The translations under genes and the position numbers were made by a program. The notes under the pieces were generated by a model that saw nothing but the letters and a program-made list of their open reading frames with translations, was not told the origin of the DNA and did not search any database. From positions 256,001 to 320,000 of the forward strand of contig CAVSDR010000003.1 of NCBI GenBank assembly GCA_963726745.1: a DNA stretch of 64,000 nt, in the 5' to 3' direction. This stretch comes from an uncultured Verrucomicrobiae bacterium (lineage in GTDB: Bacteria; Verrucomicrobiota; Verrucomicrobiia; Chthoniobacterales; UBA10450). Each line of letters opens with the position of its first letter. Position 1 is the stretch's first letter. Shown piece by piece: positions 2,617 to 64,000 of this stretch.

Positions 2617-2647
2617 AAGGCGCGCTGCGGCGCGCCTTTTCATTTTT
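2617..2647 (+). terminator. Rho-independent terminator after rpsI
   Basis: AAGGCGCGC-TGCG-GCGCGCCTT hairpin followed by a T-rich tract. Confidence 0.8.
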
Positions 2648-2668
2648 AGCCGGCAACTTCAGCACGCC

Positions 2669-3361
2669 TTACGGCTGCGTGGGCGCCGGAGAAGCAACCG
2701 CTCCCGGGGAAGCCGCCGGGGCGGCGCTCGCGGCCGGTGCCGGCGCTTTCAGCGTGCGTAAAGATTGGGATGCCTCGTTGGCCACGGCGCTGTCGCGGTA
2801 TTGCGTCAGGATCGTTTCCGCGACCTGGCGCGCCTGCTCGATCTGGCCTTTTTGTTTCAAGAGCGCGACCTGCGCGAGAAGGGCCAGCGGAGCGTTGAAA
2901 TCGCGCGGGTGCTCCGAGGCAACGCGGCGATAGGCGTCGAAGGCTTCGTCGGTTTTGCCGAGCGAATCGAGATTGGCCGCTTGCGCCATTTTCGCGGTAG
3001 TCACGAACTCGTGTTTCGGATGCTGCGCGACAAATTTCTCCAGGGTCGCGTTGGCTTCGGCGAATTTTTTCTCCTTCCGCTGCTCCGCGGCGAGCAAGAG
3101 ATACGCGGTCGAGCCGGCGCCGGCGCTGCTGTATTGCGCAATCACTTTCTGGAAGTCGTCGGCTGTTTTCGCCTGGGCCAACATCGCCGCGGCGGCATCT
3201 TCCCGGCGCTGGTTATAAAGATGGAACGCGCCCCAGGCGATCGCACCGAGGATGATCGCGAGCAGGCCCGCGAGGATGGGCGTCTTATAGCGCATCCAGA
3301 CAATTTGCGAGTCGAGGACGGGATCGGGCGTGGACGTGGCGGTGGAAGGGAGAGCAGTCAT
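2669..3361 (-). CDS. Membrane-anchored TPR protein (YfgM-like)
   Basis: N-terminal TM helix then TPR-like helices; probable start MTALPST at 3361. Confidence 0.75.
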   Translation of the reverse strand: MTALPSTATSTPDPVLDSQIVWMRYKTPILAGLLAIILGAIAWGAFHLYNQRREDAAAAMLAQAKTADDFQKVIAQYSSAGAGSTAYLLLAAEQRKEKKFAEANATLEKFVAQHPKHEFVTTAKMAQAANLDSLGKTDEAFDAYRRVASEHPRDFNAPLALLAQVALLKQKGQIEQARQVAETILTQYRDSAVANEASQSLRTLKAPAPAASAAPAASPGAVASPAPTQP

Positions 3362-3465
3362 TGGCAAAGCACGCGCCGGTGCGGCGCGGAGTCGTGATAT
3401 GCCACGCGCGGCTTTCCCGCGCAAGAGCACAGGGCCGGGCGGCGCATCCCCCGCGAATTCCTCAG

Positions 3466-3981
3466 ATGGGCCGCAACATCTGGCTGACTGCAATGGGTCT
3501 GGGCGTCGCCGCGAGTCTGCTGGCTGCGGCATGCTCCGAAAAGGCGGCCCCGGCGCGCCCAGGAGCGCTCCGCGAGGAGAGCGACGCCGACCGGCCCGAG
3601 GAAGACCAGATTGCGGAAGATTGCGTGGCCTTCGTCCGCGCTACGAAAGTGGTTCCCGCGCGCGCCCCCCGGGCGGACTGTCCGGAGTGTCCCGCTGCCG
3701 GGGCAGAGGCGTTAAAGTTTCAACATATGGAAATGGAGGCGATCTCCTGCTCGGAAGAAACGTGCACGGTGAAGGTGACGCTTCACGCGGTCTTCCAACC
3801 AGCCACGGGCGACGCCATCGCCGGCGGATTAACCGCGTGGATTCCTCCGGAGCAACGCGCAGGCTATTTGCATGGACAGCCGCCCGCGGGCGAAAAGGTT
3901 TTTCCCGTCGTCATCACTTACCAGCGGCGCGCGGAAGGATGGCGGGCGATCGAATTCGATCGACCTTCGCCATCGAAGTAG
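3466..3981 (+). CDS. Hypothetical lipoprotein
   Basis: MGRNIWLTAMGLGVAASLLAAAC lipobox-like signal. Confidence 0.6.
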   Translation: MGRNIWLTAMGLGVAASLLAAACSEKAAPARPGALREESDADRPEEDQIAEDCVAFVRATKVVPARAPRADCPECPAAGAEALKFQHMEMEAISCSEETCTVKVTLHAVFQPATGDAIAGGLTAWIPPEQRAGYLHGQPPAGEKVFPVVITYQRRAEGWRAIEFDRPSPSK

Positions 3982-4108
3982 CGCCCTTCGCTTCCATCGC
4001 TTCGCGGCATACACCCAATCGGCTGCGCGAAGACGAAATATCTGCATTCGGTGTCCCACAGCGCCCAACGACCGCTGTGCGTGCCCCGTCCGGAGGTTTC
4101 CCCATCCT

Positions 4109-7100
4109 ATGAAAATTCGTTTCCCTCGCCACGCAGCGTTGCTGCGCCCTGTCCTTGCCTTCTCCCTCTGCTTCGCGGCCGCGATGCTTCTCCTGCTCGC
4201 CTTGGCCAAGGCGCAACTGACCGAGACCTCGCCGCCTTGGCTGAAGCGATTCGCCTCCGCCTTCGGCGTCGACTCAACCTTCCATCGTCCTGCCGGCGGT
4301 GGAGGGGCCTCCGTTAAACTGGACAAGAATCCACCGGAAGCGCCGGCAGTGCTCCCGCAAGGAACACGCGCGGCCCGCTCCAGTCAGGCGACCCGCGATC
4401 AAGGCCCGGTGACGCCGGTTCGCAGTGGGAAATTGCGCGCCCTGCCGCCAATCGATCCCGAGACGGTGACCAAGCATTATCACGTCGAGCCCGTTTATCC
4501 CGAACCGCCGACGCGCAGCGGTGCGCCCGATGGCCCCATCCAAACGGAAGCCGGGGCCGTGACCTCAGCCCCGAGTCCCGCAGGCATCAGCTTCGACGGT
4601 GTTGGCGTGGGCCTGGGGACCTACAGTCCTTCGAGCAATCCGCCGGACGTGAATGGCCGAGTCGGCGCCACGCAGTATGTGCAGTGGAACAACACCAGCT
4701 TCGCGGTTTTCAACAAAACGACCGGCGCGCTCGAATACGGTCCTGCTGCCGGGAACACGCTCTTCCAAGCGCTCGGCGGTGTCTGCGCCTCGCACAATGA
4801 TGGCGACCCGGTGGTCTCCTACGACATTCTCGCAGGACGCTGGGTGCTTTCGCAATTTGTCGTCGGCGGCCCGGCGGGCGGCTACTCGCACCAATGCTTT
4901 GCGGTCTCCACCACCTCCGATGCCACCGGCGAGTATTACCTCTACGACTTCATTACCGACCCGGTGAATTTCGTCGATTATCCGCACCAGGGCGTCTGGC
5001 CGGATGGTTACTACATGGCTGCACACGTCTTCAGCGCCGGGCCGATTGAAGTGCCGGTGGCGGTGCCCGGGGCTTTCATCGAGGGACGCACGTATGTCTT
5101 CGAACGGGAGAAAATGATCAAAGGGCTTCCGGCGCGACAAGTAAGCGTCGAGATGGGACGCCAGATCGGCCATCTGCCGGGCGATCTGGATAGCTTAACG
5201 CCGCCGCCCGTGGGCGAGGCGGCATTTGTCCTGGGACCGAACGAAGCCCTGACGAATATCACGAACTCGTATCGCTTGCAGGTGACGTGGGATCCGACCC
5301 CGGCGGTGGCCGTCACCCGCGGACAGATTCTCTTCGGCACCGGCACGCCGCCCTGCGTGAACGGGCAGGCCTCCCCCGCGCGCGATTGCGTCCCGCAGCC
5401 TGCGCCGGCCACAGGTCTCGATTATCTCGACCGCCTTTCGGGCCGCTACATGTATCGCCTGGCTTACCGCAACCAGGGCACGCCAGCGGTGGCTGATGAG
5501 TCGCTCGTGGTTAGCGCGCCCACCTCGGGCAGCACGAGCACCCCGGCGCACGGGGCAGTGCGCTGGCTGGAGTTCCGCAACGCCGGCGATTCCCTCGCGA
5601 CGCCGACTCTTTTCCAGTCCGGCACTTTCGATCCGGACATTAGTTATCGTTGGATGCCTTCAGTCGCGATGGATAAGGATCGCAACATTGCGCTCGGCTA
5701 CAGCAAGTCGAGCCTCACGATCAAGCCGGGCATTTATCTCACCGGCCGGCTGGCGGGCGATCCCGTCGGCCTCATGGGCGCGGAGGCGGAAATACAGCCA
5801 GGCTTGGGCGTGCAACTGGGTGCCGGAAATCGCTGGGGCGATTACACCGCGATGACCTTGGACCCGATCGACCAGTGCACCTTCTACTACACCAACGAAT
5901 ATCTGAAAACGACCGGCAGCTTCAATTGGTCCACCCGCATCGCCGGCTACCGGTTCCCCACCTGCACCTCGGCAGCGAATCTCTGGGGCACCGTCACCGG
6001 CACCATTACCTCCGCTGAAACCGGAGCGCCGATCTCCGGCGTGCGCGTTTCCTTGAGCAACGATTACGCCGGCGCCAGTAATGCCAGCGGCGTTTACACC
6101 ATCCTCGTGCCCGCAGGGACCTACACCGCGATGGCGGCCGACGCTGCCCGCAATTGCGCCTCGGCCTCGCCGGCGTCGGTCACGGTCTCCCCGCCCGGCG
6201 GCGGGTCGGTCGTCCAGAATTTTGTCATGAGCGGCGTCTCCAAGCTGGAAGCGAGCGGAGCCACAATCGATGACTCGTTAGGCAACGGCAATGGCATCGT
6301 CAATCGCGGCGAATGCGTCCGGGTGAACCTGGGAGTGAAGAACAATGGCTGCGCCAAAGCGTCGGCTATTTCCGCGCAGCTCACCACCACCACGCCCGGC
6401 GTGACCGTGGTCGACGGTGCTTCCAGCTACTCCGACAAAGCGATCGATGAAAGCGGCAACAACCAGACGCCCTTCAAGATCTCGGTGTCCGATTCCTTCG
6501 GCTGCGGCACCGAGATCGCGCTCGCGCTCAACCTCACCTACGCGAATGGCACCAAGACGATCAACTATTCCATTCCCACCTGCGCCGGCGGCCCCGATCA
6601 GGCGATCCCCTCGAGCCAGTTGACCACCAGTGATGCCACCCAGCAGGATCGCCTGGGCCGCAACGGCCGGCCGAGCACCTGTGCGGGCAAGGCCAGCCCT
6701 GGCGGCGGCTTCGCGGGCACGAAGTACTACAAGACCTTTACCTTCACCAACACCGCGGGCGCGCCGCGCTGCTACACGGTCACGATCAATGCCGGCCTCA
6801 ACGGCCCCGGCGATATCGAAAGCGCGGCCTACGACCAGGTCTACGATCCGGCCAACCTGAGCACGAATTACCTCGGCGACACCGGCATTAGCGGCCTCGG
6901 CACCACCGTCGATACCGCCAGCTACGCCTTCACCGTTCCGGCAGGGCATAACTTCGTCATCGTGGTCAACACCACCGGCTCGAACACTTCCGGCAACATC
7001 GCCTCCTCGCCCTTCAGCGGCACGGTTTCCGGATTCATCAACAACGCCGCCGGGCCCGGCGACTGCGCATCCCTTCCGCCGATTCCCGCGCTGCTCAGCG

Positions 7101-7591
7101 GCGCCTCGCGCCTGACCCATGGTTCCGCCGGGACCTTCGACGCGCCCTTGCCGCTGGATGGCAGCGGGATCGAGCCGCGCCGCGGGAACGGCAATTACCT
7201 GGTCGTCCTGCATTTCGACCGCGCCGTGCAAAGCGGCAGCGCCACCGTTTCCTCGGGCACCGGGATGGCGGCGCCGCCGACCTTTAGCGGCAATGACATG
7301 CTCGTGCCCTTGAGCGGCGTCGCCGATCAGCAGCGCCTCACGCTCACGGCTACGAACGTCTCCGGCGCGGGTGGACCGGTCCTGGCCTCGGTGAATCTGC
7401 AGATGACCTTCTTGATTGGCGACACGAATACGGACCGCACCGTCAATGCAGGCGATGCCTTGCAGACCCGCGATCGCTCCGGCCAACTCAGCGACATGAC
7501 GAACTTCCTCACGGACGTGAACCATGACGGCACGATCAATGGCGGCGACGCCATCATCGTGCGCGGGCAGTCCGGGAAAACGGTCCCGTGA
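4109..7591 (+). CDS. Large secreted multidomain protein with carboxypeptidase-regulatory-like domain and C-terminal dockerin-like repeat
   Basis: Signal peptide; PPDxNGxVG and RWGDY motifs; GTVTGTIT..GAPISG domain; C-terminal GDTNTDRTVNAGD/DVNHDGTINGGD EF-hand-like pair. Confidence 0.8.
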   Translation: MKIRFPRHAALLRPVLAFSLCFAAAMLLLLALAKAQLTETSPPWLKRFASAFGVDSTFHRPAGGGGASVKLDKNPPEAPAVLPQGTRAARSSQATRDQGPVTPVRSGKLRALPPIDPETVTKHYHVEPVYPEPPTRSGAPDGPIQTEAGAVTSAPSPAGISFDGVGVGLGTYSPSSNPPDVNGRVGATQYVQWNNTSFAVFNKTTGALEYGPAAGNTLFQALGGVCASHNDGDPVVSYDILAGRWVLSQFVVGGPAGGYSHQCFAVSTTSDATGEYYLYDFITDPVNFVDYPHQGVWPDGYYMAAHVFSAGPIEVPVAVPGAFIEGRTYVFEREKMIKGLPARQVSVEMGRQIGHLPGDLDSLTPPPVGEAAFVLGPNEALTNITNSYRLQVTWDPTPAVAVTRGQILFGTGTPPCVNGQASPARDCVPQPAPATGLDYLDRLSGRYMYRLAYRNQGTPAVADESLVVSAPTSGSTSTPAHGAVRWLEFRNAGDSLATPTLFQSGTFDPDISYRWMPSVAMDKDRNIALGYSKSSLTIKPGIYLTGRLAGDPVGLMGAEAEIQPGLGVQLGAGNRWGDYTAMTLDPIDQCTFYYTNEYLKTTGSFNWSTRIAGYRFPTCTSAANLWGTVTGTITSAETGAPISGVRVSLSNDYAGASNASGVYTILVPAGTYTAMAADAARNCASASPASVTVSPPGGGSVVQNFVMSGVSKLEASGATIDDSLGNGNGIVNRGECVRVNLGVKNNGCAKASAISAQLTTTTPGVTVVDGASSYSDKAIDESGNNQTPFKISVSDSFGCGTEIALALNLTYANGTKTINYSIPTCAGGPDQAIPSSQLTTSDATQQDRLGRNGRPSTCAGKASPGGGFAGTKYYKTFTFTNTAGAPRCYTVTINAGLNGPGDIESAAYDQVYDPANLSTNYLGDTGISGLGTTVDTASYAFTVPAGHNFVIVVNTTGSNTSGNIASSPFSGTVSGFINNAAGPGDCASLPPIPALLSGASRLTHGSAGTFDAPLPLDGSGIEPRRGNGNYLVVLHFDRAVQSGSATVSSGTGMAAPPTFSGNDMLVPLSGVADQQRLTLTATNVSGAGGPVLASVNLQMTFLIGDTNTDRTVNAGDALQTRDRSGQLSDMTNFLTDVNHDGTINGGDAIIVRGQSGKTVP

Positions 7592-7595
7592 GCGC

Positions 7596-8207
7596 TTAAC
7601 TCGCGGACTTCCGGCCGGCTTTTCGCAGCGCGATTTGGTCCGAGGGACGCGTGTCGGCTTTGAGAAACTTTCGCATCAAGGCCAGCGCCTCGTCATTTTC
7701 ACGCGGCGTGTTTGAGGCGCAGCAATCCTCCGGGATGAGCAGGTCGTAGTCGCGCATGTAAGCGTCGTTCGCGGTGAAGAGGACGCAGAAGTTGCCGGCT
7801 AATCCCGTGAGGATGAGCCGGCGCGATCCGAGGTAACGCAGGAGCGTTTCCAAAGTGGTCGCGAAAAACCCGGAGTGCTTCGGCTTGAGCACAAAGTAAT
7901 CGTCCTTCGCCGGGCGCAGCATTTCGGCGATCTTGCGGCCGCGCACTCGCTGCGCGAGGCAGTGCCGGATGGTGCGCTGGAAGTCGGATTGCCAGCGCCC
8001 GAAGTTGTCGTTCACGTAGATCACCGGCACGCCGGCCTGGCGCGCCCGGCGTTTCAGGCGGCGGAGGTTTTTCGCCATCGCGAGCGCCTGCGGCAGCATC
8101 CCCTCGGCCTCGGGGAAATCGAGGTCGTTGATCACGTCGATCAAGAGCAGCGCCGTCTCGCACTTGTCCGGCGCGTTCCCGTGCAGGTCGGAGTTCTTCG
8201 GCGGCAT
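7596..8207 (-). CDS. Isochorismatase-family cysteine hydrolase
   Basis: ALLLIDVIND, KPKHSGFF.T.L, G.AGNFCVLFTANDAYMR; start MPPKN at 8207. Confidence 0.9.
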   Translation of the reverse strand: MPPKNSDLHGNAPDKCETALLLIDVINDLDFPEAEGMLPQALAMAKNLRRLKRRARQAGVPVIYVNDNFGRWQSDFQRTIRHCLAQRVRGRKIAEMLRPAKDDYFVLKPKHSGFFATTLETLLRYLGSRRLILTGLAGNFCVLFTANDAYMRDYDLLIPEDCCASNTPRENDEALALMRKFLKADTRPSDQIALRKAGRKSAS

Positions 8208-8251
8208 GAGGTTTTCACCCAGGCCGGCGAAGGCCGTGAGCGTGGGACGCG

Positions 8252-8530
8252 TCAGCTCTTTTTCCGCGAGCTCTTCTTGGCGCTGCTTTTCTTGGCGCTC
8301 TTCTTTGCGCCACCGCTCTTCTTCCCGCCTTTGCGCGAGCTGACTTTCGAGCTCTTCTTGCCGCGACCGGAGCCGGATTTCTTCCCGCCCTTGTCCTCTT
8401 TGTTGACCGTGGCCCAGGCGCGGCTCTCGGCTTCTTTTTTGGAAACGCCGCGCTTCTCGTAGCCCTCTTCGATATGCTCGGCTTTGCGCTTCTGTTTGTC
8501 GGTGTAAGCCGACTTGTCCCCTTGTGGCAT
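8252..8530 (-). CDS. Small basic protein ('plasmid stabilization protein'-like) with K/S-rich tail
   Basis: MPQGDKSAYTDKQKRKAEHIEEGYEKRG..RAWATVNK is a conserved family signature. Confidence 0.8.
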   Translation of the reverse strand: MPQGDKSAYTDKQKRKAEHIEEGYEKRGVSKKEAESRAWATVNKEDKGGKKSGSGRGKKSSKVSSRKGGKKSGGAKKSAKKSSAKKSSRKKS

Positions 8531-8656
8531 ACGTCCTCCTGGTTTTTGCGCGCGACCCTTTCGCACGCTTCAATTTCCGAATCGCAACCGACCTAGCGAC
8601 TGGATTGGTCGCGAAAGATTGGACGCCGCCGCCTCCGCCGTGGAAACTCCGCTCCT

Positions 8657-9727
8657 GTGCCGCACGACAAACTTTTCATTCCCGGCCCGGTCGAGGTCTC
8701 ACCGAAGACTTGGGAAGCTTTCACCCGGCCGATGATTGGTCACCGCTCGGAGGCCTTTCGTGAGCTTTACCGGGCAATCCACCCGCCGCTGCAGGAACTC
8801 TTCGGCACAAAACAGCCGGTCTTCCTCTCCACCTCCTCGGCCTGGGGCGTGATGGAAGCCGCGATCCGCAACGTGGTCCAGGAGCGCGTCCTTTGCTGCA
8901 TGTGCGGCGCCTTCTCCGACAAGTGGCTCGACGTCGCGCGCCGCTGCGGGGTGCAAGCCGAGGGCTTGCAGGTGGAATGGGGCCGGCACATCGACCCCGC
9001 TGCGCTCGACGAGAAATTAGCCAGCGGGATGTTCGACGCGGTTACCCTGATCCACAACGAAACCTCCACCGGTGTAATGAATCCCCTCCCCGAGATTTGC
9101 TGCACCCTCGCCAAGTATCCCGAAGTCGCGCTGATTGTGGACACAGTTTCCTCCTTCTCCACCATGCCGATCCCGATGGACTCGTTAGGCATCGACGTTC
9201 TCCTCACCGGCAGCCAGAAAGCACTCGCGCTCCCGCCGGGCTTCTCGCTCTTCGCGGTCTCGCCGAAGGCGATGGCGCGCGCCGCGGAGGCAGAAAATCG
9301 CGGCTACTACTTCGACTTCCTCGAGTTCGCGAAGAACCAGGAAAACGACATGACGCCCACGACCCCGAGCGTGGCCCACATCCATGCGCTGCAGTCGCAG
9401 CTCGAGATCATGCAAGCCGAAGGCCTGGCGAATCGTTTCGCGCGCCACGCGCGCACGAACGCGCTGGTGCACGACTGGGTGCGAGCGCGCGGCTTCGAGT
9501 TTTTCGCCGAGGAAGGCTACCGCTCCGTCGGCCTCACCTGCGTACGAAACAGCCGACAAATTGATGTGGCCAAATTAGTCAGCGATCTGCGCGCGAAGCA
9601 TCATCTGGTGATCGACGGCGGCTACGGCAAGCTCAAAGGGAAGACCTTTCGCCTCTCCAACATGGGCGACGAAACCGAGGAAACCGTGGCGCATCTCCTG
9701 CGCTGTCTCGACGATTGTCTCTCCTGA
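8657..9727 (+). CDS. Class V PLP aminotransferase (alanine-glyoxylate/serine-pyruvate family)
   Basis: LFIPGP, HNETSTG, GSQKALALPPG (PLP lysine). Confidence 0.92.
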   Translation: MPHDKLFIPGPVEVSPKTWEAFTRPMIGHRSEAFRELYRAIHPPLQELFGTKQPVFLSTSSAWGVMEAAIRNVVQERVLCCMCGAFSDKWLDVARRCGVQAEGLQVEWGRHIDPAALDEKLASGMFDAVTLIHNETSTGVMNPLPEICCTLAKYPEVALIVDTVSSFSTMPIPMDSLGIDVLLTGSQKALALPPGFSLFAVSPKAMARAAEAENRGYYFDFLEFAKNQENDMTPTTPSVAHIHALQSQLEIMQAEGLANRFARHARTNALVHDWVRARGFEFFAEEGYRSVGLTCVRNSRQIDVAKLVSDLRAKHHLVIDGGYGKLKGKTFRLSNMGDETEETVAHLLRCLDDCLS

Positions 9728-10899
9728 CGCGCCTCCTTCCGCGGGCGAAAAATCGCCGCCCGCCAGTGCCACCGCCGGCGGATGATGCGCGGCGGCTGCG
9801 GGACTTTGCGCGCGCTCTCAGCGAACGCTTTTGCCTCGAAGACGCCAAGGCCATCGAGCGCGCCGTAGCCCGCGAGCGCGGAGTGCAAGTGCGGGTGGCC
9901 TTTGATCCCGCGGCGGTGCAGCACGCGATGAGCTGCGCCTGGTCGCGCGAGGCCGGGCAGCCGGCGCACTTCACCTTTCCCCGCTTCCAACCGGGGCATC
10001 TCCTCGAGACCGTGATCTATCGCTGGCTCGCGTTGCTGGAGCTTTTTCTCTCTCGCGAGCTGTCGACGGAGGTTCGCGGCCGGGTCGTGATCAACTTCAA
10101 CGACGCCGGGATCGAACCCGGCCTGGCCTTCTCCGGGAACCGCCCGGAATACCGGCTGATTCCTGATCCCGATTTCTTCACCACGCGCGGCTACGCGCAG
10201 GCGCGGGATCACTTTGCGCGTGCGCCAGTAGCCTGGCGCGACCGCAGCCCGGCAGTTTTTTGGCGCGGGAGTTCGCTCGGCCGGAAGGAGCACACGGCGC
10301 TCGAGATGCCGCGCGCGCGCCTTTGCCAAGTGGCCCGCGACGCGAGCGCGGCGGAATTCGATGTCGGCCTCAGCGAGGTCGTGGATGTCAGTGCCACAGA
10401 GGCAGCGCAGCTTCGCTCCGCGGGCTTGGTCAAGGATCGGGTCTCGTGGAAACGGCTCGCGCAATTTCGTTATCACATCGACATCGACGGCAACGCCAAC
10501 AGCTTCGCCGGCTTGTTCCGCAAGCTCTTGTCCGGCGGCGTGGTTTTCAAAGTCGCCTCGCCGGACTGCTACGCGCAGTGGTATTACCATCGGCTCAAAC
10601 CCTGGGAAAATTTCGTCCCGGTCCGGTCCGACTTAGGCGATTTGCTGGAAGCGATCGCGCGCTGCCGCGAGCAGGACAAACTCGCGCAACAGATCGCGCA
10701 GAATGGCCGCGCGCTGGCGCTGGCCCTTCGCTTCGAAACCGAATTCGCCGGCGCCGTGGCGACGGTGCGGGAAGCTTTCGCCGCCAGCCGGCCGACGGTT
10801 AAACGCTGGCTTCGGACAGCTCGCGCTTCGGCCCGGGATTGGGCGCATTTGTCAGCGGGCTGCGCCACGTTTCCAGCGGCAACAAGCCAATGCCCATGA
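9715..10899 (+). CDS. Glycosyltransferase family 90 (CAP10-like)
   Basis: FWRGSS, RYHIDIDGNANSF, WYYHRLKPWENFVPV..DL.DL, IAQNGR. Confidence 0.8.
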   Translation: MSLLTRLLPRAKNRRPPVPPPADDARRLRDFARALSERFCLEDAKAIERAVARERGVQVRVAFDPAAVQHAMSCAWSREAGQPAHFTFPRFQPGHLLETVIYRWLALLELFLSRELSTEVRGRVVINFNDAGIEPGLAFSGNRPEYRLIPDPDFFTTRGYAQARDHFARAPVAWRDRSPAVFWRGSSLGRKEHTALEMPRARLCQVARDASAAEFDVGLSEVVDVSATEAAQLRSAGLVKDRVSWKRLAQFRYHIDIDGNANSFAGLFRKLLSGGVVFKVASPDCYAQWYYHRLKPWENFVPVRSDLGDLLEAIARCREQDKLAQQIAQNGRALALALRFETEFAGAVATVREAFAASRPTVKRWLRTARASARDWAHLSAGCATFPAATSQCP

Positions 10900-13814: not shown

Positions 13815-13818
13815 TTTC

Positions 13819-51799: not shown

Positions 51800-51838
51800 G
51801 GCCGTGCGCGCGCACGCAACTCGCTACAGACCGGAGGC

Positions 51839-52705: not shown

Positions 52706-52738
52706 CGCCACGGTCGAACGCGGACTAAAGTCCGCGGG

Positions 52739-54296: not shown

Positions 54297-54352
54297 GTCC
54301 TTGAGTACATGAGACCGCGCGCCGGGTTGTCAAGCGCGCGCCGGGAAACCGC

Positions 54353-55405: not shown

Positions 55406-55408
55406 TCT

Positions 55409-55541
55409 GGGGAGCGCAGGCTGCCAGCCTGCAGTTTCCGGCAGCCTGCCGGAAACACCTCCCTCTTCCCGAAACCTTCGGCCATCGCCCTCTGGACGCG
55501 GCAAGCTGCCGCGACCGGCAGGCTGGCAGCCTGCGCTCCCC
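55409..55541. repeat. REP/REPIN-like palindromic element between convergent genes
   Basis: Perfect 24-bp inverted repeat GGGGAGCGCAGGCTGCCAGCCTGC (55409-55432 / 55518-55541) enclosing two inner hairpins. Confidence 0.8.
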
Positions 55542-55547
55542 GGAAAC

Positions 55548-56826
55548 CTACGGGCGGGCGCCGCGGTAATAATTCACCAGACCATCGGCCACGCCGTCGG
55601 CATACTCGCGGAAAATGCTCGGGCGCTCGGTGCCGTTCACGTTGCGCAAGCCCTCGTAATCGCCCTCCTGCACGCGCCAGAAAACCTCGTCGCTGTTCAT
55701 CACATACGGCTCGTAATAGATCACCGGGCAATCGTAGAGCCGCGTGGCCATAAGATTGCGCAGGAAGACATACTCGGTGCCCTCGACCGGGGTGACGTTG
55801 TCGGTCGTGTAGCGATATGGCGGCAGCTTCGTGCGCTGCGCGAGCGCATCGGCGGCTTTCCGCGCGAGCGGCAACTCCTCCTCGTGCGTCCGGCTGAGCA
55901 AACGTTCCAGCATCTCGAAGCGCACGTCGTCGAACTCCAGCTCTGCCGGCAGGTAAGCGCCGTTGACCAGCAGGTGCAGATGATTCCGCTCGATCAAACG
56001 CGGCGCGGTCGGCACATCCCAGGCCTCGGCGTTGAAGTGCAAACAGAGGACGACGTCCGGCTTCAGGCGTCCGTTCACGATCGCAGCGCGCTGTCTGATT
56101 TCGCTGTTGCGATAAAAGAGCAGCTCGCTCTCCCAGCGGACGGTGTGCTCCTTGTCCGGATCCTCCGGCGCCGGCGAACTCTTCGCGCGGCTGCGCAATC
56201 CCGTTGCGCGCCAGGACCTCCCGCGCGAGCACGCGCAAATCATCGGGGCGCTTCGGCGTGGTCGGCTCGTTCTCCGCGCGCACCAGCGAGACGGTGGCGC
56301 CGAGCTTGCGCAGCTTTGGCGCGAGCAATTTCGCCACCCGCAAGGTCATGTCGCCCTCGGTCACGGGCCGGCTGTCGCCCACCTGGAACCAGCGCTCCTC
56401 CATCTTCGCCCAGCGTCCGCCGATGTGTCCCGGGTCGAGCGCGATTTTCACCCCGGCGAGCGGGCGGTCCTTGGGCGGCGCCTTCCGCGTGGCGGTGCTT
56501 TTCCAGGGACGCGCAAACTTCCGGCGCGACTCCTCGTTAGGCGCGAAGCGTAGAGTAAACCAGCTCTGGGCGTCGTGATCGATCAGGAAGCGCGCGCGCT
56601 CCGCTTCCACCTGGATGTGTTCCGCGCTGTAGCCGCGGGTGCAGTAGACCTTTTCGAGCGCGGCCACGAAATCGTCGTGCGTCATCGTCTCCTGATATTT
56701 TTCGAAAGCGGCCCACTCAGGCGGGTGCCCCAGCGGACTGACCTTCGGCGCTGCGCCTGCAGAGAGCAGCAAAGCCAGGGAGACTGCGACCACCAGCAGG
56801 CAGCGGCGATAGATGATGCAACCCAT
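55548..56826 (-). CDS. N-acetylmuramoyl-L-alanine amidase-like protein, frameshift near 56170
   Basis: KIALDPGHIGG, EG.MTL; other frame EIRQRA..PD..LCLHFNA, YEPYVMNS. Confidence 0.75.
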
Positions 56827-56874
56827 GGCTGGGAATGAACATCATTTCGCCCGAGGCGCTGGCGATTCCTGACT

Positions 56875-59859
56875 TTACCTTTCCCGGGTCTGGCGGTGAC
56901 GCCAGGTAGCAGCGAGGACAAGCGCCGTCAGCGCCGCGGCGGCCCAAGTGGCCGGCTCAGGCACGGCCGTGAGATTGGGCACGAACTCGTAGAATCCGTT
57001 GTAACTAATGATCGTTGCCCCCTGCGCAAACGGCATGGCGGCGTCGTTAAAGAACTGGAAAGAGGCGAGCTGCTCCGGCGAAAAGCCGGGGTTAAAGGAA
57101 GCCAAAAGCCGGTCATTGCCGGCGGACCCGGTATCGCCCAGGGGCGAGCCCGTCCAGTTCAAGATCGAGATCAAGCCGCCGCTTCCGGCATACATGGTAA
57201 TCGACGAGAAGAGCAGGGTGCTGCCGTTTCCGCCGCTGCCGAAGTCGATCGTGGTCCCGTTATGCAAAGTGAGGAAGCCTACGCCGACCGGGGAGCCAGC
57301 TGCGGGGCTGCCTTCGCTCAGTCCATTGGTCACCAATCTGGCCCCGGCCTGCAGGTCGATTGCCGTGTTCGCCCCCAGGCGGTCGTTCGAGGCCGTGGTG
57401 CCCTGCAAAAGCAAGGTGCCGCCGTTGTTCACGATGATGGTGCCGGCGCTGACTTTCCCGGTGGTTCCGATCTGCAGGGTGTTGCCCGTGGTGCCGCTGG
57501 CCGTGCCGATCACGACCTGGTTCGCCGTGACGCTGCCCTCGACCACCAGTTTGTTCGCGTTGGCGCCTGCATTGCTGCCGATGCGAATGGAGGTGCCGGG
57601 CAAGGTCACATCGGCAGAGTTGCCGGCCATCAGGATGACTTGATTCGAGCTCGTGGTTTCGCCCACAACCCAATCCTGGCGGGAGATGAAACTGATGCCG
57701 TCAATGGTCCGCGTGGCGTCCCCGACGTTCAGAGTCGTGATCGAACTGATAGTGCCGCTGTAGGCTTTGCCGGAATCTACTGCGACCCCGTCGCCATAAG
57801 ATGCGCCAACGACGAAGCGATCGCCATCCAGGCTGACGGAGTAACCGAAGAAGTCGCCACTAGCGCCATCCGAAGCAAAGAGCTTCACACTCTCCGTTAC
57901 GGTTCCTGTGGCCGTGTCTAAATTTTGAAAGAGGTAGGCCGAGCCTGCACCAGACTTCGCTCCGGGATTGTCGCCATACGCTCCGACCAGCGCGTTATTT
58001 CCGGAAATACTGACAGAGATACCGAAGTAATCATGAGCCGCGCGATCCGAAGCAAGTAGTTTTGCCGTCTGTGTCACCGTGCCATTGGCGGCGTCCAAAT
58101 TGCGAAATAGATAGGCCGAGCCCTCATCGGAATTCGCTCCGATATCATCGTCACCGTAGGCGCCCACGAGCGCGCTGGTCCCAGAAAGACTGACAGAATA
58201 GCCGAAGAAATCATCGGCCGCGCCGTCGGCCGCGATCAGCTTCGCGCTTTGCGTTACTGTCCCAGTGACGATGTCGAGATTCCGGAAAAAATAGGCTGAT
58301 CCTTGCTGAAAGTTGACGCCGATATCGTCGCCATGTGCGCCGACCAGCGCGTTACTCCCTGAAAGGCTGACCGAAGAGCCGAAGCGGTCACCAGAAGCAC
58401 CATCGGCGGCCACCAGCTTCGCGTTCTGCGTCACTGTCCCACCGGCACTGTCCAAATTCCGAAAAAAATATGCAGAGCCCCGGTCGCTGCCCGGCGCTCC
58501 GACTAGCGCACTGTTCCCGGCGAGGCTGACCGAGACTCCGAAGTGATCGTAGGCTGCGCCATCCGAAGCAGTCAGCTTCGTGTTCTGCGTCACTGTACCC
58601 GCAGCAGTGCTCAGATTCCGATAAAAGTAGGCCGATCCTTGGTAAGAGTTAGCTCCGACGAAGTCGCCGGGTGCGCCCAGGAGTGCGCTCGAACCGGAAA
58701 GGCTAACCGAATAGCCGAGGTTATCATAATAAGCCCCGTCCGAGGCGATCAGCTTCACGCTTTGGGTGATGGTCCCGCTGGCCGTGTTGAGACTTTGAAA
58801 CAAGTAACCGGAGCCCTGATAAGCGTTGACGCCAACGGCGTCATAAAATGCTCCGACCAGCGCGCTGGCACCGGAAAGACTGACCGACCAGCCAAAGTTA
58901 TCGTCGGTCGCGCCGTCCGAGGCCTGCAATCGCTGACCCAAGGCAAAACCAGACGCGGAATGAATCGTGAATCCATTCAAACGCGGGCTGTCGTTGGCAT
59001 TGGCCGTAGCCCGGAATGAGACCGTGCCCAGGGCGTTCGCAACTCCGCCGAGCGTGAGGGAGAACTGGCCATCGGCGGTCACGCTAGTGTTGTAGTTGAT
59101 GCTGCCCGAGGCGCCGCTGCCAAGGTTGGTGAAAGTCGTCGTGCCGCCCTGGGCTGAATGGTCGTAGGCGTAGAAGGTGAAAAAGTAGTCTGTGCCCGCG
59201 AGCAGCCCGGAGATGGTCAGTGTGAGGGCGCGGTTGTTGTCGGTGGTGACAAAGTCGCGGTAAAGTTCGCCCAGGGTGAAAGCGCCCGCATCGGCCGGCC
59301 CGCCGCGATCGCGGCTCCCGAGATTTCCGGCGGAGGCGGCCAGAGCAACGCTGAGGCTTCCGCTGGTGAAGCTGTTGCTGGCCGCGAATGACTGCGTCTG
59401 CGTGGGACCGCCGCTGATGTTAAAGGATTGCCAGCCGGTTTCGGTGGGGCTGCTGGGGGTGTTGAAGTCGATCTTGAGGACGGGGTCGCCGACAACGGTG
59501 GTCGCGGCCAGCAGTCTCTCATCGGACGCCAGCACAAGCCCAGCGCGGGAAGGGAGCCCGCGCAGCGACTTGGTCAAGCCAGCGCGCGCGTCCTTGACCC
59601 TGGTCCGCCGGAGAGCCGGCGTTTGCGAGACTCGTAGTGGCACGACTGGTTTCCACCACAGGCGGGAAAATTCCAGGCGCAGGGGGCGCGCGTCATCGAC
59701 TGCCGCATCGGCCTGAGCGGATACCATCTGCGCGGAGCCCGACGAGCAAACGACCGCCAGGTAAAGAGTGCTGGCTAATATGCCACAACGAGTTGCGGCG
59801 CGCGACAAAACGCGGAGCTGGATAAATGCGTTGGGAGACGAGGCGGCGATTGCTTTCAT
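56875..59859 (-). CDS. FG-GAP repeat beta-propeller surface protein with PEP-CTERM sorting signal
   Basis: Seven A.DG...D.FG.SVSLSG..LVGA repeats; C-terminal VPEPATW + TM helix + basic tail; start codon uncertain. Confidence 0.85.
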   Translation of the reverse strand: MKAIAASSPNAFIQLRVLSRAATRCGILASTLYLAVVCSSGSAQMVSAQADAAVDDARPLRLEFSRLWWKPVVPLRVSQTPALRRTRVKDARAGLTKSLRGLPSRAGLVLASDERLLAATTVVGDPVLKIDFNTPSSPTETGWQSFNISGGPTQTQSFAASNSFTSGSLSVALAASAGNLGSRDRGGPADAGAFTLGELYRDFVTTDNNRALTLTISGLLAGTDYFFTFYAYDHSAQGGTTTFTNLGSGASGSINYNTSVTADGQFSLTLGGVANALGTVSFRATANANDSPRLNGFTIHSASGFALGQRLQASDGATDDNFGWSVSLSGASALVGAFYDAVGVNAYQGSGYLFQSLNTASGTITQSVKLIASDGAYYDNLGYSVSLSGSSALLGAPGDFVGANSYQGSAYFYRNLSTAAGTVTQNTKLTASDGAAYDHFGVSVSLAGNSALVGAPGSDRGSAYFFRNLDSAGGTVTQNAKLVAADGASGDRFGSSVSLSGSNALVGAHGDDIGVNFQQGSAYFFRNLDIVTGTVTQSAKLIAADGAADDFFGYSVSLSGTSALVGAYGDDDIGANSDEGSAYLFRNLDAANGTVTQTAKLLASDRAAHDYFGISVSISGNNALVGAYGDNPGAKSGAGSAYLFQNLDTATGTVTESVKLFASDGASGDFFGYSVSLDGDRFVVGASYGDGVAVDSGKAYSGTISSITTLNVGDATRTIDGISFISRQDWVVGETTSSNQVILMAGNSADVTLPGTSIRIGSNAGANANKLVVEGSVTANQVVIGTASGTTGNTLQIGTTGKVSAGTIIVNNGGTLLLQGTTASNDRLGANTAIDLQAGARLVTNGLSEGSPAAGSPVGVGFLTLHNGTTIDFGSGGNGSTLLFSSITMYAGSGGLISILNWTGSPLGDTGSAGNDRLLASFNPGFSPEQLASFQFFNDAAMPFAQGATIISYNGFYEFVPNLTAVPEPATWAAAALTALVLAATWRHRQTRER

Positions 59860-59936
59860 AGCTGAGGGGTTCGTGACCTCAGCTTCTAACAAGACGGGGG
59901 ACGCCCACCTATTCCCCAAAATTAGGGGGTGGACTC

Positions 59937-60707
59937 CTACGCCTGGTCACCGCCATCGCCGCGCAGGAAACGCCGCATCAATTCCGCCTGCGAACGGACG
60001 CGAAAATGCCGGTAAACCTCCTTGATGTAGCCGCCCAAGGTGTGCAGAGAGATGCCCATTCCGTCGGCGATTTGTTTTCGGCTCTGCCCTTCGATCAGGA
60101 GATTCAAGGTCTGCCTTTGCCGCAACGAGAGGCGGGGGATGGTCACCGCGCGATCTTCCGGCCAGCCCTGTTCGTGCAACCACGGCACTTCGCTCAGGAT
60201 GATGTGGGCGATGCGGAGATCCCGCGCAGAAAATGGCGGATCCTCCGGGCTCCGGAAAATGCCGATCGTGCTCAATGACCTGGGGCCAATGGGCCTGGCT
60301 GACATGATCCCAGGGACCACGCCGGCGGCTTGCCAGAGTGGATAGGCACCCGAGAAGGCGAATCGATATTCCGGGTCGCTTTGCTGCCGCATGCGTGAGG
60401 TGTGAGCCTGGCGGCGTTGCAGCTCGGCAAAAAAAGGAGCGCTGAAATGCGCGAGATCGGGATGATCGAGCGCGCGCAGAAAGAGCGCGAATTGACCGTC
60501 CGTGAAGCCGCCGTGCAGAGAGCTGAGATGGACGGGTAATTGCCCGGGGTCCATGTCCGTGACCAAACTCCAAAGCCATGCCCGCGCCTGAATCAACTCG
60601 CTGAGCCCGCTCAGGAGGTAGCGCTTTTTCGCCATGTGATCGCCCTCGAGCGCAGCCACTTCGCCGAGCAGGCGCACCATCCGTCGCACATCGAATTCGC
60701 TCAGCAT
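59937..60707 (-). CDS. LuxR-family HTH transcriptional regulator
   Basis: C-terminal LSLRQRQTL.LL.EG.SRKQIA..MGIS.HT. Confidence 0.85.
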   Translation of the reverse strand: MLSEFDVRRMVRLLGEVAALEGDHMAKKRYLLSGLSELIQARAWLWSLVTDMDPGQLPVHLSSLHGGFTDGQFALFLRALDHPDLAHFSAPFFAELQRRQAHTSRMRQQSDPEYRFAFSGAYPLWQAAGVVPGIMSARPIGPRSLSTIGIFRSPEDPPFSARDLRIAHIILSEVPWLHEQGWPEDRAVTIPRLSLRQRQTLNLLIEGQSRKQIADGMGISLHTLGGYIKEVYRHFRVRSQAELMRRFLRGDGGDQA

Positions 60708-60829
60708 CGCGCGTGGAACTGCGCCAAGCATGCGGCGAACGCCGCCGAAGCGTAAATGAAAATCACCTTTGCCGGCGGGCGCGTTCGCGGCCCTTTTGAT
60801 TTCCCCGTTTTTACCATCATCTTCGCGGA

Positions 60830-61640
60830 ATGCTGACGATCTTGTTTCTCGGGGACATCGTCGGCGAACCAGGACGGAGCGCGGTCATCGCGCGGCTGCC
60901 GCAGTTGAAGCAGCAATACGCGCTCGATTTCACGGTCGTCAATGGCGAGAACGCCGCCGCCGGGCGCGGGATTACGCCCAAGATCACGATCGACCTCCTG
61001 CGCGCAGGCGCCGCGGTGGTGACCACGGGCGATCACATCTGGGACCAAAAGGAAATCGTGCCCTACATCGCGACCGAGCCACGGCTCCTCCGGCCGATCA
61101 ATTACCCGAACGGCGCCCCCGGTGCGGGCACGATCGTGCTGGAGACGGCGAAAGGAAAAGTTGGCGTGATCAACGTCCAGGCGCGGACGTTTATGCAGCC
61201 GATCCTGGAGAATCCGTTCGAAGCCCTGGAGCGCGCGGTCGAGGAAATGCGGCGGGAAACGCCGGTGATCTTGGTCGACGCGCATGGCGAAACCACGAGC
61301 GAGAAGATCGCCATCGGGCGATTTCTCGATGGCAGAGTGTCGGCTGTTTTGGGAACGCACACGCATGTGCAGACGGCCGACGAACAGATTTTCCCCGGCG
61401 GGACGGCTTTCCTTTGCGACGCCGGGATGTGCGGGCCTAACGAGTCCATTCTCGGCCGCGCGATCGACCCGATCGTGGGCCGCTTCATCTCCAATTTGCC
61501 GGCTGCTTTCCCAGTGGCGCGCGGCGAGGTGCGAATCTGCGGCGCGGTCGTGCAAGTAGACGAAGCAACCGGGCGCGCCCTCTCGATCACCCGGGTGAAT
61601 GAGCTCATCCGCGCGCCGGCGGAAACTGGCGCTTTAGCAG
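60830..61640 (+). CDS. ymdB: TIGR00282/YmdB metallophosphoesterase (true 3' end uncertain)
   Basis: GDIVG.PGR, NGEN.A.G.G, H.ETTSEK, GTHTHVQTAD, D.GMCG; as assembled the frame reads on to 62272 antisense to infC. Confidence 0.85.
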
Positions 61641-61654
61641 CGCCGTTGAGGCGG

Positions 61655-62254
61655 CTACTCGTCGTCTTCGTCGCCCGCGTCCTTGGCATTCGCCTCGTCT
61701 GCGTCCTCATCGTCGGCCTCGACCGAGAAGCGACGTTTGCGGCGCGCGGCCGGCAGGGGCGAGAGCGTCATGGTGATGTTGCGGCCGGCGATCTTCGGAT
61801 CCATCTCGACCTGCGACATCCCGGAGAGGTCTTCCTTCACCTTGTGCATCAACTGCATGCCGAATTCCTGGTGCGCCATCTCGCGGCCGCGGAATTGCAA
61901 CTGCACGCGGACCTTGTTCCCCTTGTCGAGGAAGGCTTCGCCGTGGCGGAGCTTGGTCATGTAATCGTGCTCGTCGATGTTTACCCGGAACTTGATTTCC
62001 TTGAGCTTCGTCCCGCTGCTTTTCTTCTCCTTCTCCTGCTTGGAGAGGTCGTAGCGGAACTTTCCAAAGTCGACGATTTTGCAGACGGGCGGGTTCGCCG
62101 TCGGCGCCACTTCCACCAGGTCCATCCCGATGCTCTGCGCCTTGCGAAGGGCGTCGGAAAGTTTCATGACGCCGAGCTGTTCGCCGGAAGCGCCCATGAT
62201 GACCCGGACTTCGCGAGCGCGAATCCGGCCGTTTACACGAATTTGTGGTTGCAG
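61655..62254 (-). CDS. infC: Translation initiation factor IF-3 with non-AUG start
   Basis: IRVNGRIRAREVRVI, DLVEVAP.A.PPVCKIVDFGKFRY, KEIKFR, FRGRE; no ATG before the conserved N-terminus (CTG 62254 or ATT 62242). Confidence 0.95.
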   Translation of the reverse strand: MQPQIRVNGRIRAREVRVIMGASGEQLGVMKLSDALRKAQSIGMDLVEVAPTANPPVCKIVDFGKFRYDLSKQEKEKKSSGTKLKEIKFRVNIDEHDYMTKLRHGEAFLDKGNKVRVQLQFRGREMAHQEFGMQLMHKVKEDLSGMSQVEMDPKIAGRNITMTLSPLPAARRKRRFSVEADDEDADEANAKDAGDEDDE

Positions 62255-62463
62255 ATTAAATCAAGCTCCTGACCGGCGGGTGGGAGTGAGCCGCGCGCCG
62301 TATTGCACATTCTATCGCACGTTTCCACCGGGCTGGACGCCTGCCGGAACACTTCTGCCTGTCGTGGCTGCGATTCTTCGGGGGGACCGCAACAGGGGAC
62401 GCAGCCGGGGGCGCTGGTCGAACGGAAGTTGAGTGCAACTCCCCACGGAGGCAAGGTGAATCT

Positions 62464-63123
62464 CTACGCCGCCGGCGGCGTGCCGAAGTGAGCCGCGAAG
62501 CTTTCGTAGGAAACGAGATCGTCCAGCATCGCCTCGAGCGTCACCACGAGCGGCTCCAGCTTCGCAAACCCCGAAAAAACCGCGCGATCGCCGATCTCAC
62601 TCTCAACCACGAAGGTCGGCCGCTGCGTCACTTGCATGGAGTGAAACTCCGCAGTGCTGGCGCGGGCGCGCGCCTCCACTTCCGGCGAACGGGCGCGCTG
62701 CAATAGTTGCGCCTGGTCGAGGCCGGCGGCTTTCGCGCCGATCGCCGCGGCCGTTTCCCAGTCGCCGGTTTGCACGCCTTCGCGCACGGTCGCGTGCATG
62801 AGCGCGAGCCAGACGCGGTCGTCGACGACGCCCAGCTCGCGCGCGGCTTCCGCGACGAGGTTCGGCGCGAGACATTCCTTGATCCCTTTCTTAAACCAGC
62901 CTGGCTGGAGCATGAAGGGCGCGCGCATCATCATTCCGCTGCGCCGGTAGAACCACTCCGCCTGCGCGCGCGACTTCGGAAAGCCGGAGGCATCCATGAG
63001 CGCGATCTTCCACCGGAAGTCGACCCGCCCAGCGTAGCGCTCCTGCAATTGCGTCCACGCGGGCGCGGCCCAGTAGCACCAGGAGGAGATGACTTCGAGG
63101 TAGTTCGTGACCGTGATGCGCAT
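62464..63123 (-). CDS. DsbA/FrnE-family thioredoxin-fold protein
   Basis: EVISSWCYW (SxxC variant), QRPTF cis-Pro, VFSG. Confidence 0.75.
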   Translation of the reverse strand: MRITVTNYLEVISSWCYWAAPAWTQLQERYAGRVDFRWKIALMDASGFPKSRAQAEWFYRRSGMMMRAPFMLQPGWFKKGIKECLAPNLVAEAARELGVVDDRVWLALMHATVREGVQTGDWETAAAIGAKAAGLDQAQLLQRARSPEVEARARASTAEFHSMQVTQRPTFVVESEIGDRAVFSGFAKLEPLVVTLEAMLDDLVSYESFAAHFGTPPAA

Positions 63124-63207
63124 GGCCGCGACCCTCCCAAAAACTTCGCCACGCGGAAAGCGCATTGTCTTGCCGGCAAACGTGCCATCTTGCTGCCTCG
63201 AACCCGC

Positions 63208-64000
63208 GTGCCCGACTTTAATCAGCTCCTCCTTCTCATTGCCGTGCTTTCGCCGCTGGTGGTGCTCGTGCGCACCTGGCGGCGGGCGGCGCTGAATCGC
63301 AGCTGGCGGCTCGCGGCGCTGGCGATTTTAGCCGTCACCACGGTGGCCTGGCTGCTCGCGCCGAGCGCGGCTGGCTTGTTCGGCGGCACGGCCTGGTTGC
63401 TCCTGCTCTTCCTGCCCACGCAGGGCCTGCGGCGCATGGCGGAACTGGCGGCGGCGGAGCGTTTCCCCGCGGCTTTTCGCCTGGCGACAATTCTCTCGCT
63501 GCTCCATCCCGCGCGCGCGGTCCGGGCGCAACGGGCCCAGCTGCAGGCGCTCGCGCTGGCGCAACGTGGCGAGCGCGAGAAAGCGCTGGCTAAATTCGCC
63601 GAGCTCGCGAGCCCGCAGGCGCTGCGACTGCGGGGCGATTGGCCGGCCGCGCTCGCCTGGTGCGAAGCCCACCTCCCGCGCGCTGGGCTGGGCGACGACC
63701 CCGCGCTTCTTCTGCTGCTCTTCCGCTCGTTAGGCGAAACCGGGCAGCGCGAGGAGCTGGTGGCACAATTCGCCGCGCGCGCCCCCAGCCTGCTGGCGAC
63801 GCCGTTGCAGCAGCCGACCTTCATGGCCAGCCTGGCGCTGCTTTTCGCTTTTTGCGGACGCACCGCGAGTCTGCGGCGCTTGCTCGCGGAGGACTACGCC
63901 GCGCTCCCGGAAGCGCCGCGCGCTTTTTGGCTCGCGACCAGCCTGGCGGCGGAGGGCCGCCCGGCGGAAGCGCGCGCGCTCTTCGAAGGACTGGCCCGGC
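63208..64000 (+). CDS. Membrane protein, possibly N-terminus of a rhomboid-family protease (runs off window end)
   Basis: Open frame from GTG 63208: VPDFNQLLLLIAVLSPLVVLVRTWRR.., several TM helices then helical repeats; catalytic region not in window. Confidence 0.55.
   Translation, partial: MPDFNQLLLLIAVLSPLVVLVRTWRRAALNRSWRLAALAILAVTTVAWLLAPSAAGLFGGTAWLLLLFLPTQGLRRMAELAAAERFPAAFRLATILSLLHPARAVRAQRAQLQALALAQRGEREKALAKFAELASPQALRLRGDWPAALAWCEAHLPRAGLGDDPALLLLLFRSLGETGQREELVAQFAARAPSLLATPLQQPTFMASLALLFAFCGRTASLRRLLAEDYAALPEAPRAFWLATSLAAEGRPAEARALFEGLAR

Follow-up and report, generated by a model that had tools for sequence, protein, structure and literature searches.

Among the iterated words of bacterial chromosomes, Chi, the FtsK-orienting polar sequences (KOPS) and other polar chromosome octamers are non-palindromic, distributed genome-wide and skewed with replication. 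A strand bias is described for the architecture imparting sequences (AIMS) in the section of PMC5861425 that deals with them. In the portions of the literature cited here, uptake sequences are named only for the Pasteurellaceae and the Neisseriaceae. Neisseria and Haemophilus take up DNA of their own kind by means of such self tags. According to the relevant passages, the uptake signal sequences (USS) and the DNA uptake sequences (DUS) are rare in acquired DNA and rRNA genes, are sparser in conserved genes, originate by substitution and have an amino-acid cost (PMC2817400, PMC7811141), and USS and DUS descriptions that match traits of the motif reported here are also found in passages of PMC3630211, PMC1939737 and bioRxiv 10.1101/2025.10.24.684340. 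Here, we analyzed a stretch of 64,000 nucleotides from an uncultured Verrucomicrobiae bacterium (G000:C3:256001-320000, hereafter the window) together with its genome G000, a 3.41-Mb draft of 7 contigs with 64% GC. Two motifs are iterated in this DNA, which are referred to as motif 1 (GCCTAACGAGT, with the word GCCTAACGAG) and motif 2 (SAWNKYGCYGGCTAATTY). The new point is that one genome holds two independent uptake-like words.

Expectation-maximization (EM) against an order-4 background yielded two matrices, one for each motif. Motif 2 is an asymmetric, graded motif of 18 bp with a GC core flanked by A/T tracts, for which about 5,200 sites were estimated in the 3.41 Mb, 3,734 of them with a posterior above 0.8. 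Its fixed positions are A-4 (90%) as well as G1 and G4 (99%), and S is found at -5 in 97%. The initial annotation of the window had proposed the 10-bp word GCYGGCTAAW. This word reflects a real iterated signal and constitutes the middle part of motif 2, but the motif extends over 18 bp and CTAA, which is not among the fixed positions, is present in only 1,549 of the 3,734 confident sites (41%). A longer motif of 26-31 bp was ruled out, since the flanks beyond -6..+13 carry no information in 3,099 sites. A dyad or dimer site was rejected as well, because the 49 overlapping inverted pairs are the number expected from the self-complementary AATT end. The four 10-mers of the proposed word occur 691 times genome-wide compared to 28 expected under an order-3 Markov model. 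Genes were predicted with a purpose-built dicodon model (2,561 genes, 81% coding, with some genes missed), and within these called genes the 10-mers occur 495 times compared to 19.9±4.1 after per-gene synonymous shuffling (10 runs) and 46±5 after tripeptide-context shuffling (5 runs). The counts thus depart clearly from the codon-shuffled expectation with which the initial annotation had suggested comparing them. For motif 2, the excess over synonymous-codon shuffles is 25- to 70-fold; the CTAA tetramer alone shows no enrichment in G000 in the Markov and shuffle comparison. The strict motif 2 pattern is present in 1,149 copies, compared to 17 copies with a changed G1 and 13 with a changed G4 (controls 10 and 12, respectively). 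With the reversed matrix 0 sites were obtained in G000, and with the true matrix 0-10 sites per Mb in samples of the sister genomes G013, G017, and G042.

Motif 2 is a second independent iterated signal and not a dialect of motif 1, for which about 1,950 sites were obtained in G000 (EM). Once variants are included, the two motifs do account for most CTAA tetramers, as the initial annotation had noticed for the window, namely, for 71 of 109 there and for 3,641 of 6,289 genome-wide. Their flanks are not random genome-wide: among 6,288 CTAA contexts, upstream GYYG and downstream CGA avoid each other with an odds ratio of 0.38. Each motif also repels its own copies. At distances of 25-325 bp there are 118 motif 1 pairs compared to 253 expected and 662 motif 2 pairs compared to 1,033 expected, whereas mixed pairs amount to 1,086 compared to 970 expected, i.e., there is no cross-exclusion, and three control words are clustered 1.2- to 1.5-fold rather than excluded. 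The fitted self-exclusion lengths are 207-217 bp for motif 1 and 239-257 bp for motif 2, with exclusion depths of 1.0 and 0.65 and a cross-correlation of 1.1-1.2. The in-register likeness of the words themselves is not significant (p 0.14-0.21). In-register double sites of motif 1 and motif 2 were counted 229 times compared to about 54 under independence, which suggests that old sites acted as seeds or that doubles are favored. The motifs also differ in age. In orthologues of five relatives, 23-44% of the motif 1 sites are retained but only 0-5% of the motif 2 sites (10/324); motif 1 is old and family-wide and motif 2 is young. Across 146 family genomes, motif 1 clearly exceeds control in the majority of genera and stays close to it in most members of genus g22. 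It is not a decaying relic, as 1,312 perfect 9-mers stand against 332 single mismatches at fixed positions, and since this mismatch level is below the reversed-word control, motif 1 is still maintained in G000. Thus, of the options considered by the initial annotation, the one of two sequence classes agrees with the flanks, the separate self-exclusion and the different ages and distributions. The idea of a second dialect of motif 1 does not hold, because neither exclusion nor distribution is shared and the words do not align.

In order to describe the distribution of motif 2, the strict pattern was counted in 350 other genomes of the family. It occurs 174 times in G053, 55 times in G015, and 45 times in G011, and at most 26 times in the rest (G000: 1,149, control 5), so that motif 2 is strong in 2 of 351 family genomes, namely, G000 and G053, which belongs to another genus. 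In an order-wide draw of 301 genomes, only these two were clearly above control. G053 is an unpublished genome on which all G053 results rest, and G001 contributes counts only. In G053 the motif takes the form of a dialect, approximately WGAKCGcGYYGKCTRW, with 1,264 copies compared to 71 in G000 and at most 16 in 166 others, whereby the dialect density of about 1,700 sites per Mb is the same as that of motif 2 in G000. G053 has motif 2 without motif 1, whereas G013 and G042 have motif 1 without motif 2; samples of G015 and G011 hold only the short core of motif 2. A quick ComEC tree, from which G043 was dropped as too short, places a non-carrier as the sister of G000, the weak carriers in another clade, and G053 within its own genus. 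This scattering points to separate origins or separate expansions of motif 2. Horizontal transfer of ComEC between the carriers was excluded, since ComEC of G053 groups with its own genus, and a latent family-wide form of motif 2 was rejected because no SA linkage was present in 800 kb pooled from ten non-carriers. No further carriers were found among 80 of more than 109 GTDB matches to one 18-mer, among 6 dyad matches, or among 80 metagenome lysS loci, of which only 34 were included in the comparison. Among the papers listed from the accessible literature, none ties such a motif to this bacterial group.

With GC skew of the draft genome as a proxy for the replication strand, the G-rich strand holds a share of 0.49 of the sites of motif 1 and motif 2 alike, and motif 2 is thus not Chi- or KOPS-like. 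Genes carry 1.07 motif 2 sites per kb and the short gaps between convergent genes 3.25, stop codons are overlapped by 231 sites compared to 50 expected, and with increasing gene conservation the density drops from 1.23 to 0.97 per kb. In four defence or orphan islands there are 2 motif 2 sites compared to 28 expected and no motif 1 sites, and three older polysaccharide clusters contain 44 motif 2 sites compared to 71 expected and 2 motif 1 sites compared to 33. These regions were first picked as motif gaps and then judged by gene content and GC, so that the counts are not an unbiased sample and the contrast between motif 1 and motif 2 is more telling than the depletion itself. The rRNA genes hold 1 motif 2 site compared to 4.8 expected. 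Motif 2 sites are ungapped in 97-98% of the aligned sites, which indicates an origin by point substitution. Residues on which the relatives agree are altered in G000 in 67 of 371 motif 2 codons compared to 12.6% elsewhere (p=0.003). Motif 2 hence arose by substitution at some amino-acid cost. In 78% of 2,947 genic sites, G1 and G4 coincide with the third base of a codon, and as these positions are mostly silent yet fixed, selection or drive acting on the DNA is evident. The two motifs take up 61% of the TTA codons, and motif 2 takes up 49% of the ATA codons. Rearrangement breakpoints were set aside as an explanation, because 74-93% of neighbors are still adjacent; gene ends at broken junctions are slightly richer in both motifs.

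Within the window, motif 2 has 65 sites with a posterior above 0.8 (EM matrix, 1601..63596), which are located on both strands and are mostly intragenic. The 20 exact 10-mers, seven variants, and two "hybrids" listed in the initial annotation were all recovered at their positions (given in brackets in the following), and 19 of the 20 exact words are confident sites; the remaining one at 45845..45854 on the minus strand lacks the upstream SA and has a posterior below 0.8. On the minus strand, the exact words belong to sites at 2643..2660 (2645), 9014..9031 (9016; the gene reads K-L-A-S there), 13558..13575 (13560), 28180..28197 (28182; within lysS), and 51915..51932 (51917). On the plus strand, they belong to sites at 7788..7805 (7794; antisense to its gene), 17845..17862 (17851; overlapping the end of the minus-strand open reading frame 17856-20000), 27103..27120 (27109; covering the lysS stop codon), 31619..31636 (31625; intergenic relative to the called genes), 34870..34887 (34876; covering the stops of two convergent genes), 36186..36203 (36192; reading E-L-A-S-K-I), 37832..37849 (37838), 38768..38785 (38774), 39831..39848 (39837), 42980..42997 (42986), 43019..43036 (43025), 55237..55254 (55243; in aroB), 59764..59781 (59770), and 63579..63596 (63585). 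The variants correspond to sites at 9572..9589 (9574; A at position 5), 22334..22351 (22336), 41902..41919 (41904), 52826..52843 (52828), and 53051..53068 (53053) on the minus strand, the latter two in holA, and at 32962..32979 (32968) and 51012..51029 (51018; at the end of the uvrB frame) on the plus strand. The two "hybrids" are ordinary variants, although true in-register doubles do exist in the genome: CTCGTTAGCC at 42953..42962 (minus strand) is a motif 1 variant with C>G at position 2, which has 166 copies genome-wide, and AATTAGGC lies in a complete motif 2 site that has a C as its fifth base (53426..53443, minus strand). A site without CTAA, which had not been listed before, is located at 26484..26501 (plus strand) and is identical in a contig of the public soil run X1. 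Contigs of this run show 0-1 differences to pieces of the window, whereby the run is possibly the source sample itself. Motif 1 is represented by 19 exact 10-mers and 38 confident sites (EM matrix, 6274..63735). The gene content of the window is ordinary, including lysS, uvrB, holA, and aroB, and the closest named relatives of a window protein are metagenome-assembled genomes of Chthoniobacterales/Verrucomicrobiae with 80-86% identity.

Several other repeated words were observed. In G000, CTAG and GTAC are strongly depleted genome-wide, CACGSTCA reaches about five times its Markov expectation but is clustered and has no extended logo, and GCCAAC and GACTCC form tandem hexamer runs. In G159 of genus g22 (L395-L397), GTAC occurs 4,183 times per Mb compared to 194-1,100 in twelve relatives (4- to 20-fold), and the dispersed word GTACTYA with 783 copies per Mb presents a third, palindrome-centered iterated word in the family. 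Local short repeats of the ACACAGATG type and the TGACCCCTAAATTC type, which are clustered and not dispersed, were seen in L401 (G002) and L122 (G017). Among the motif-free defence islands, L177:1759-5326 encodes an OLD-TOPRIM and UvrD pair (Gabija-like), and L176:9447-14224 and L169:10168-12615 encode a C5 methylase with a Z1 fragment and HsdM with NERD, respectively. The rRNA genes of G000 are unlinked, with the 16S gene at C6:176850-178400 and the 23S-5S genes at C6:824032-827240, about 650 kb apart.

The two motifs might belong to two independent systems that resemble uptake sequences and operate on short pieces of DNA, an explanation that we hold to be about evenly balanced between right and wrong. 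Motif 2 would then mark a second step at which sequence is read during DNA exchange, a step that this lineage recently gained on top of the motif 1 system of the family. A protein would prefer motif-bearing fragments at uptake or at the next step (ComEC passage, protection, or recombination), and site-creating alleles would then spread by molecular drive, as in the model of Maughan et al. cited in a passage of PMC7811141. If one site per short fragment suffices, neighboring sites gain little, which would give rise to the self-exclusion length, and the fragment or tract would be some hundreds of bases long. In favor of this explanation are the enrichment that survives both shuffles, the fixed but mostly silent G1 and G4, the lack of strand bias, the scarcity in islands and rRNA genes, the lower density in conserved genes, the amino-acid cost, the self-exclusion, the GC core between A/T tracts, and the dialect of the same density in G053. 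G000 also carries ComEC, a ComF-like protein, DprA, ComM, PilB/PilC, two PilT-like ATPases, and pilins. That the motifs have equal exclusion lengths but no cross-exclusion fits two multiplying gates or wholly separate processes and not one reader of two words; two readers on the same few-hundred-base unit would act as separate, multiplying gates rather than as alternatives. More tentatively, and with clearly less confidence, soil Chthoniobacterales may filter incoming DNA through two such gates, the first common to the family and the second restricted to single species, with at least two origins and with dialects, whereby the latter would be read neither by a ComP-type pilin nor by ComEA and would act on few-hundred-base fragments.

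A number of observations speak against uptake-like systems. The competence genes are family-wide, so that their presence does not single out the motif 2 carriers. No reader protein was found for either motif, and the related recognition proteins considered by the initial annotation thus stay hypothetical. The sequence-specific pilin receptor of uptake sequences is ComP or, by prediction, ComN. The ComP_DUS profile gave only a sub-threshold match to a pilin N-terminus, the predicted folds of two conserved minor pilins (high confidence) resemble other pilins at least as closely as they do ComP (Z 3.4 and 4.8), and fold searches returned generic pilin matches only. No pilin common to the carriers alone was present among the matches listed (26+13+15+14+16 prepilin-motif frames from five genomes). 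The ComEA-like gene of the family encodes a fusion of a signal peptide, an SNase fold, and a helix-hairpin-helix (HhH) part and lies between pfkB and uvrB-like genes. It is whole in G013, G015, and G042 but was split in G000 by a rearrangement into C4:17230-17907 (L411) and a deleted HhH remnant at C2:230150-230290 (L273). In G053, comEA, comM, and two minor pilin genes are frameshifted (C59, C118, C2, C68), whereas ComEC, DprA, and the ComF-like protein are whole; the housekeeping genes of this genome show 0 frameshifts in 14,898 amino acids, and two further doubtful splits were seen among 105 genes. Single mismatches at G1 and G4 amount to 20 and 22 in G053 compared to 9-21 and 10-13 in its sisters, which corresponds to a motif decay of at most about 1%. 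This gene decay with a nearly intact motif can be read as a very recent loss of uptake, as a replacement of the outer receptor, or as a motif that is unrelated to uptake. The joint decay of comEA, comM, and the two minor pilin genes suggests that the pilins at G000 C3:432359 and C6:246094 are likely competence pilins. Furthermore, of 40 family genomes searched for this comEA-like gene, 12 gave no match, among them genomes with strong motif 1, so that carriers are not alone in having lost it. Inverted pairs such as DUS and USS form in transcription terminators show no excess, with 42 opposite-strand pairs at 18-60 bp compared to 88 expected.

The main rival explanation is a chromosome signal similar to the highly iterated palindrome HIP1, in which the 18-mer is the target of a cytoplasmic DNA-binding protein (a nucleoid organizer, a repair protein, or a defence self-mark) and selection, given a soil population of very large size, favors a site every few hundred bases without any uptake. 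We consider this possible but doubtful. It would account for the self-exclusion, the lack of strand bias, and the near-uniform density even in conserved genes, and it fits the persistence of the motif despite the damage to comEA in both carriers and to comM and two pilin genes in G053; HIP1 itself is held by selection in all frames according to the corresponding part of PMC5861425. On the other hand, HIP1 is palindromic and motif 2 is not, thousands of sites would each have to be selected despite the amino-acid cost, a restriction to 2 of 351 family genomes would be unusual for an essential architecture signal, and no candidate protein was found. Clear long-range periodicity is not seen either, as the largest autocorrelation was 0.07-0.10 compared to a noise of 0.06 over 144 lags in a quick 1-kb test on two contigs, whose method differs from that of PMC5861425, and there is no helical phasing between motif 2 sites in G000. 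Drive could also work through another kind of DNA exchange with a mobile reader, either by a packaging bias of phages or gene transfer agents or by vesicle DNA that enters through ComEC. That the carriers are scattered over different branches of the ComEC tree would suit this, as would the fact that ComEC, the ComF-like protein, and DprA but not ComEA are intact in both carriers. It appears improbable, since an exclusion of 0.25 kb would be far below any capsid load, and a terminase was rejected as partner of motif 2 for lack of a Terminase_6N match, the one family searched, in G000, G053, G015, and G013.

A neutral mutation bias linked to methylation or repair, which adds the A/T tail beside an existing GC half-site, is less probable still. 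G000 does contain a conserved orphan N4/N6 methyltransferase as well as island methyltransferases, and the GTAC excess in a relative is of the methylase-site kind. However, the GC half is overrepresented as well (3,811 compared to about 2,860 per Mb in relatives) and the tail-less half is not reduced, a graded 18-bp matrix is unlike a methylase site, and a neutral bias yields no self-exclusion. Moreover, the orphan methylase was rejected as partner of motif 2, being present in 5/5 genomes tested, carriers or not, and the C5 methylase lies in a motif-free island. The other suggestion of the initial annotation, one degenerate site with the core TTAG(G/C)C and a single reader, could draw on the in-register G.CTAA of both consensus words and on the doubles at about four times the independence estimate. 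It is very improbable given that the flanks avoid each other, that 59% of the motif 2 sites lack CTAA, that cross-exclusion is absent, and that either motif occurs without the other in G053 and in G013 and G042. Least of all do we expect a coding or assembly artefact, as might be suspected from the two dominating reading frames and about 0.4 frame errors per 1,000 amino acids in the G000 assembly; it is refuted by both shuffles and does not agree with the near absence of matrix hits in three sister genomes and their absence with the reversed matrix, nor with the public soil contigs that match the window.

Two further candidates for a reader were rejected. The DUF7305 minor-pilin cassettes had no match in G053, G013, and G024 (34 searched), and the SNase-HhH ComEA is not the reader of motif 1, as it was not found in G066 and G103 despite strong motif 1. 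For USS, ComE1 is excluded as a receptor in the cited part of PMC12616744. As separate observations, L161:3383-5933 and L168:3578-6130 are paralogous cassettes of three minor-pilin genes each, with a DUF7305 protein encoded at the end, the minor-pilin cassette beside prs is replaced by an unrelated one in G053, and the SNase half of the split ComEA-like gene is kept intact as its own gene in G000. ComEC at L167:1812-4352 is about 90 residues longer than its orthologues and reaches into the neighboring region, which may be an assembly frame error. A small GTPase of the Ras/Roc family adjoins an OmpA-domain protein at L164:426-2854.

Overall, G000 combines an old signal with a young one, and the young one is absent from the sister species and has a dialect in another genus. 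The pairs of carriers and non-carriers offer a route to finding the reader of motif 2, and the measurable exclusion length predicts the size of the DNA unit that is acted on. If the two gates exist, the second would be a code by which bacteria recognize their own species in sexual exchange, which a lineage can acquire in addition to an older code and which rewrites about 2.5% of the genome, proteins included. If instead the HIP1-like explanation is true, motif 2 would present a new non-palindromic chromosome signal of the HIP1 type.

Compared with known systems, motif 2 shares with Chi, KOPS, and AIMS that it is non-palindromic and genome-wide but differs in that both motifs of G000 are unskewed. 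With HIP1 of cyanobacteria, as described in the cited part of PMC5861425, it shares the hyper-abundance, the occurrence in several frames, the selection at the DNA level, and variant words in some lineages; HIP1 is, however, an 8-bp palindrome with a reported long-range periodicity, whereas motif 2 is asymmetric, has 18 degenerate positions and excludes its own copies at short range, without clear periodicity. The likeness to the USS of Pasteurellaceae such as H. influenzae, as far as the cited sections of PMC7811141 and PMC2817400 describe them, comprises about one site per kb on both strands, the intragenic location in preferred frames, the GC core with A/T flanks, the graded matrix, the rarity in recent DNA and rRNA genes, and the amino-acid cost. 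In contrast to USS, the motif 2 word is unlike the USS word (p 0.55-0.67), an excess of terminator-like inverted pairs is missing, a second unrelated signal coexists, and the motif is confined to single species rather than to a family. On the motif 2 matrix, the canonical DUS of Neisseriaceae obtains a high score (single-test p 0.004-0.01), but since ten words were tested and the DUS word occurs only twice in G000, this likeness is a lead at best. ComP, for its part, does not reach the cut-off in G000. Dialects between lineages, which the cited passages of PMC3630211 and bioRxiv 10.1101/2025.10.24.684340 describe for DUS, resemble the relation of G000 and G053. In these passages, neisserial genomes with two dialects hold near-identical words, whereas G000 maintains two unrelated motifs side by side.

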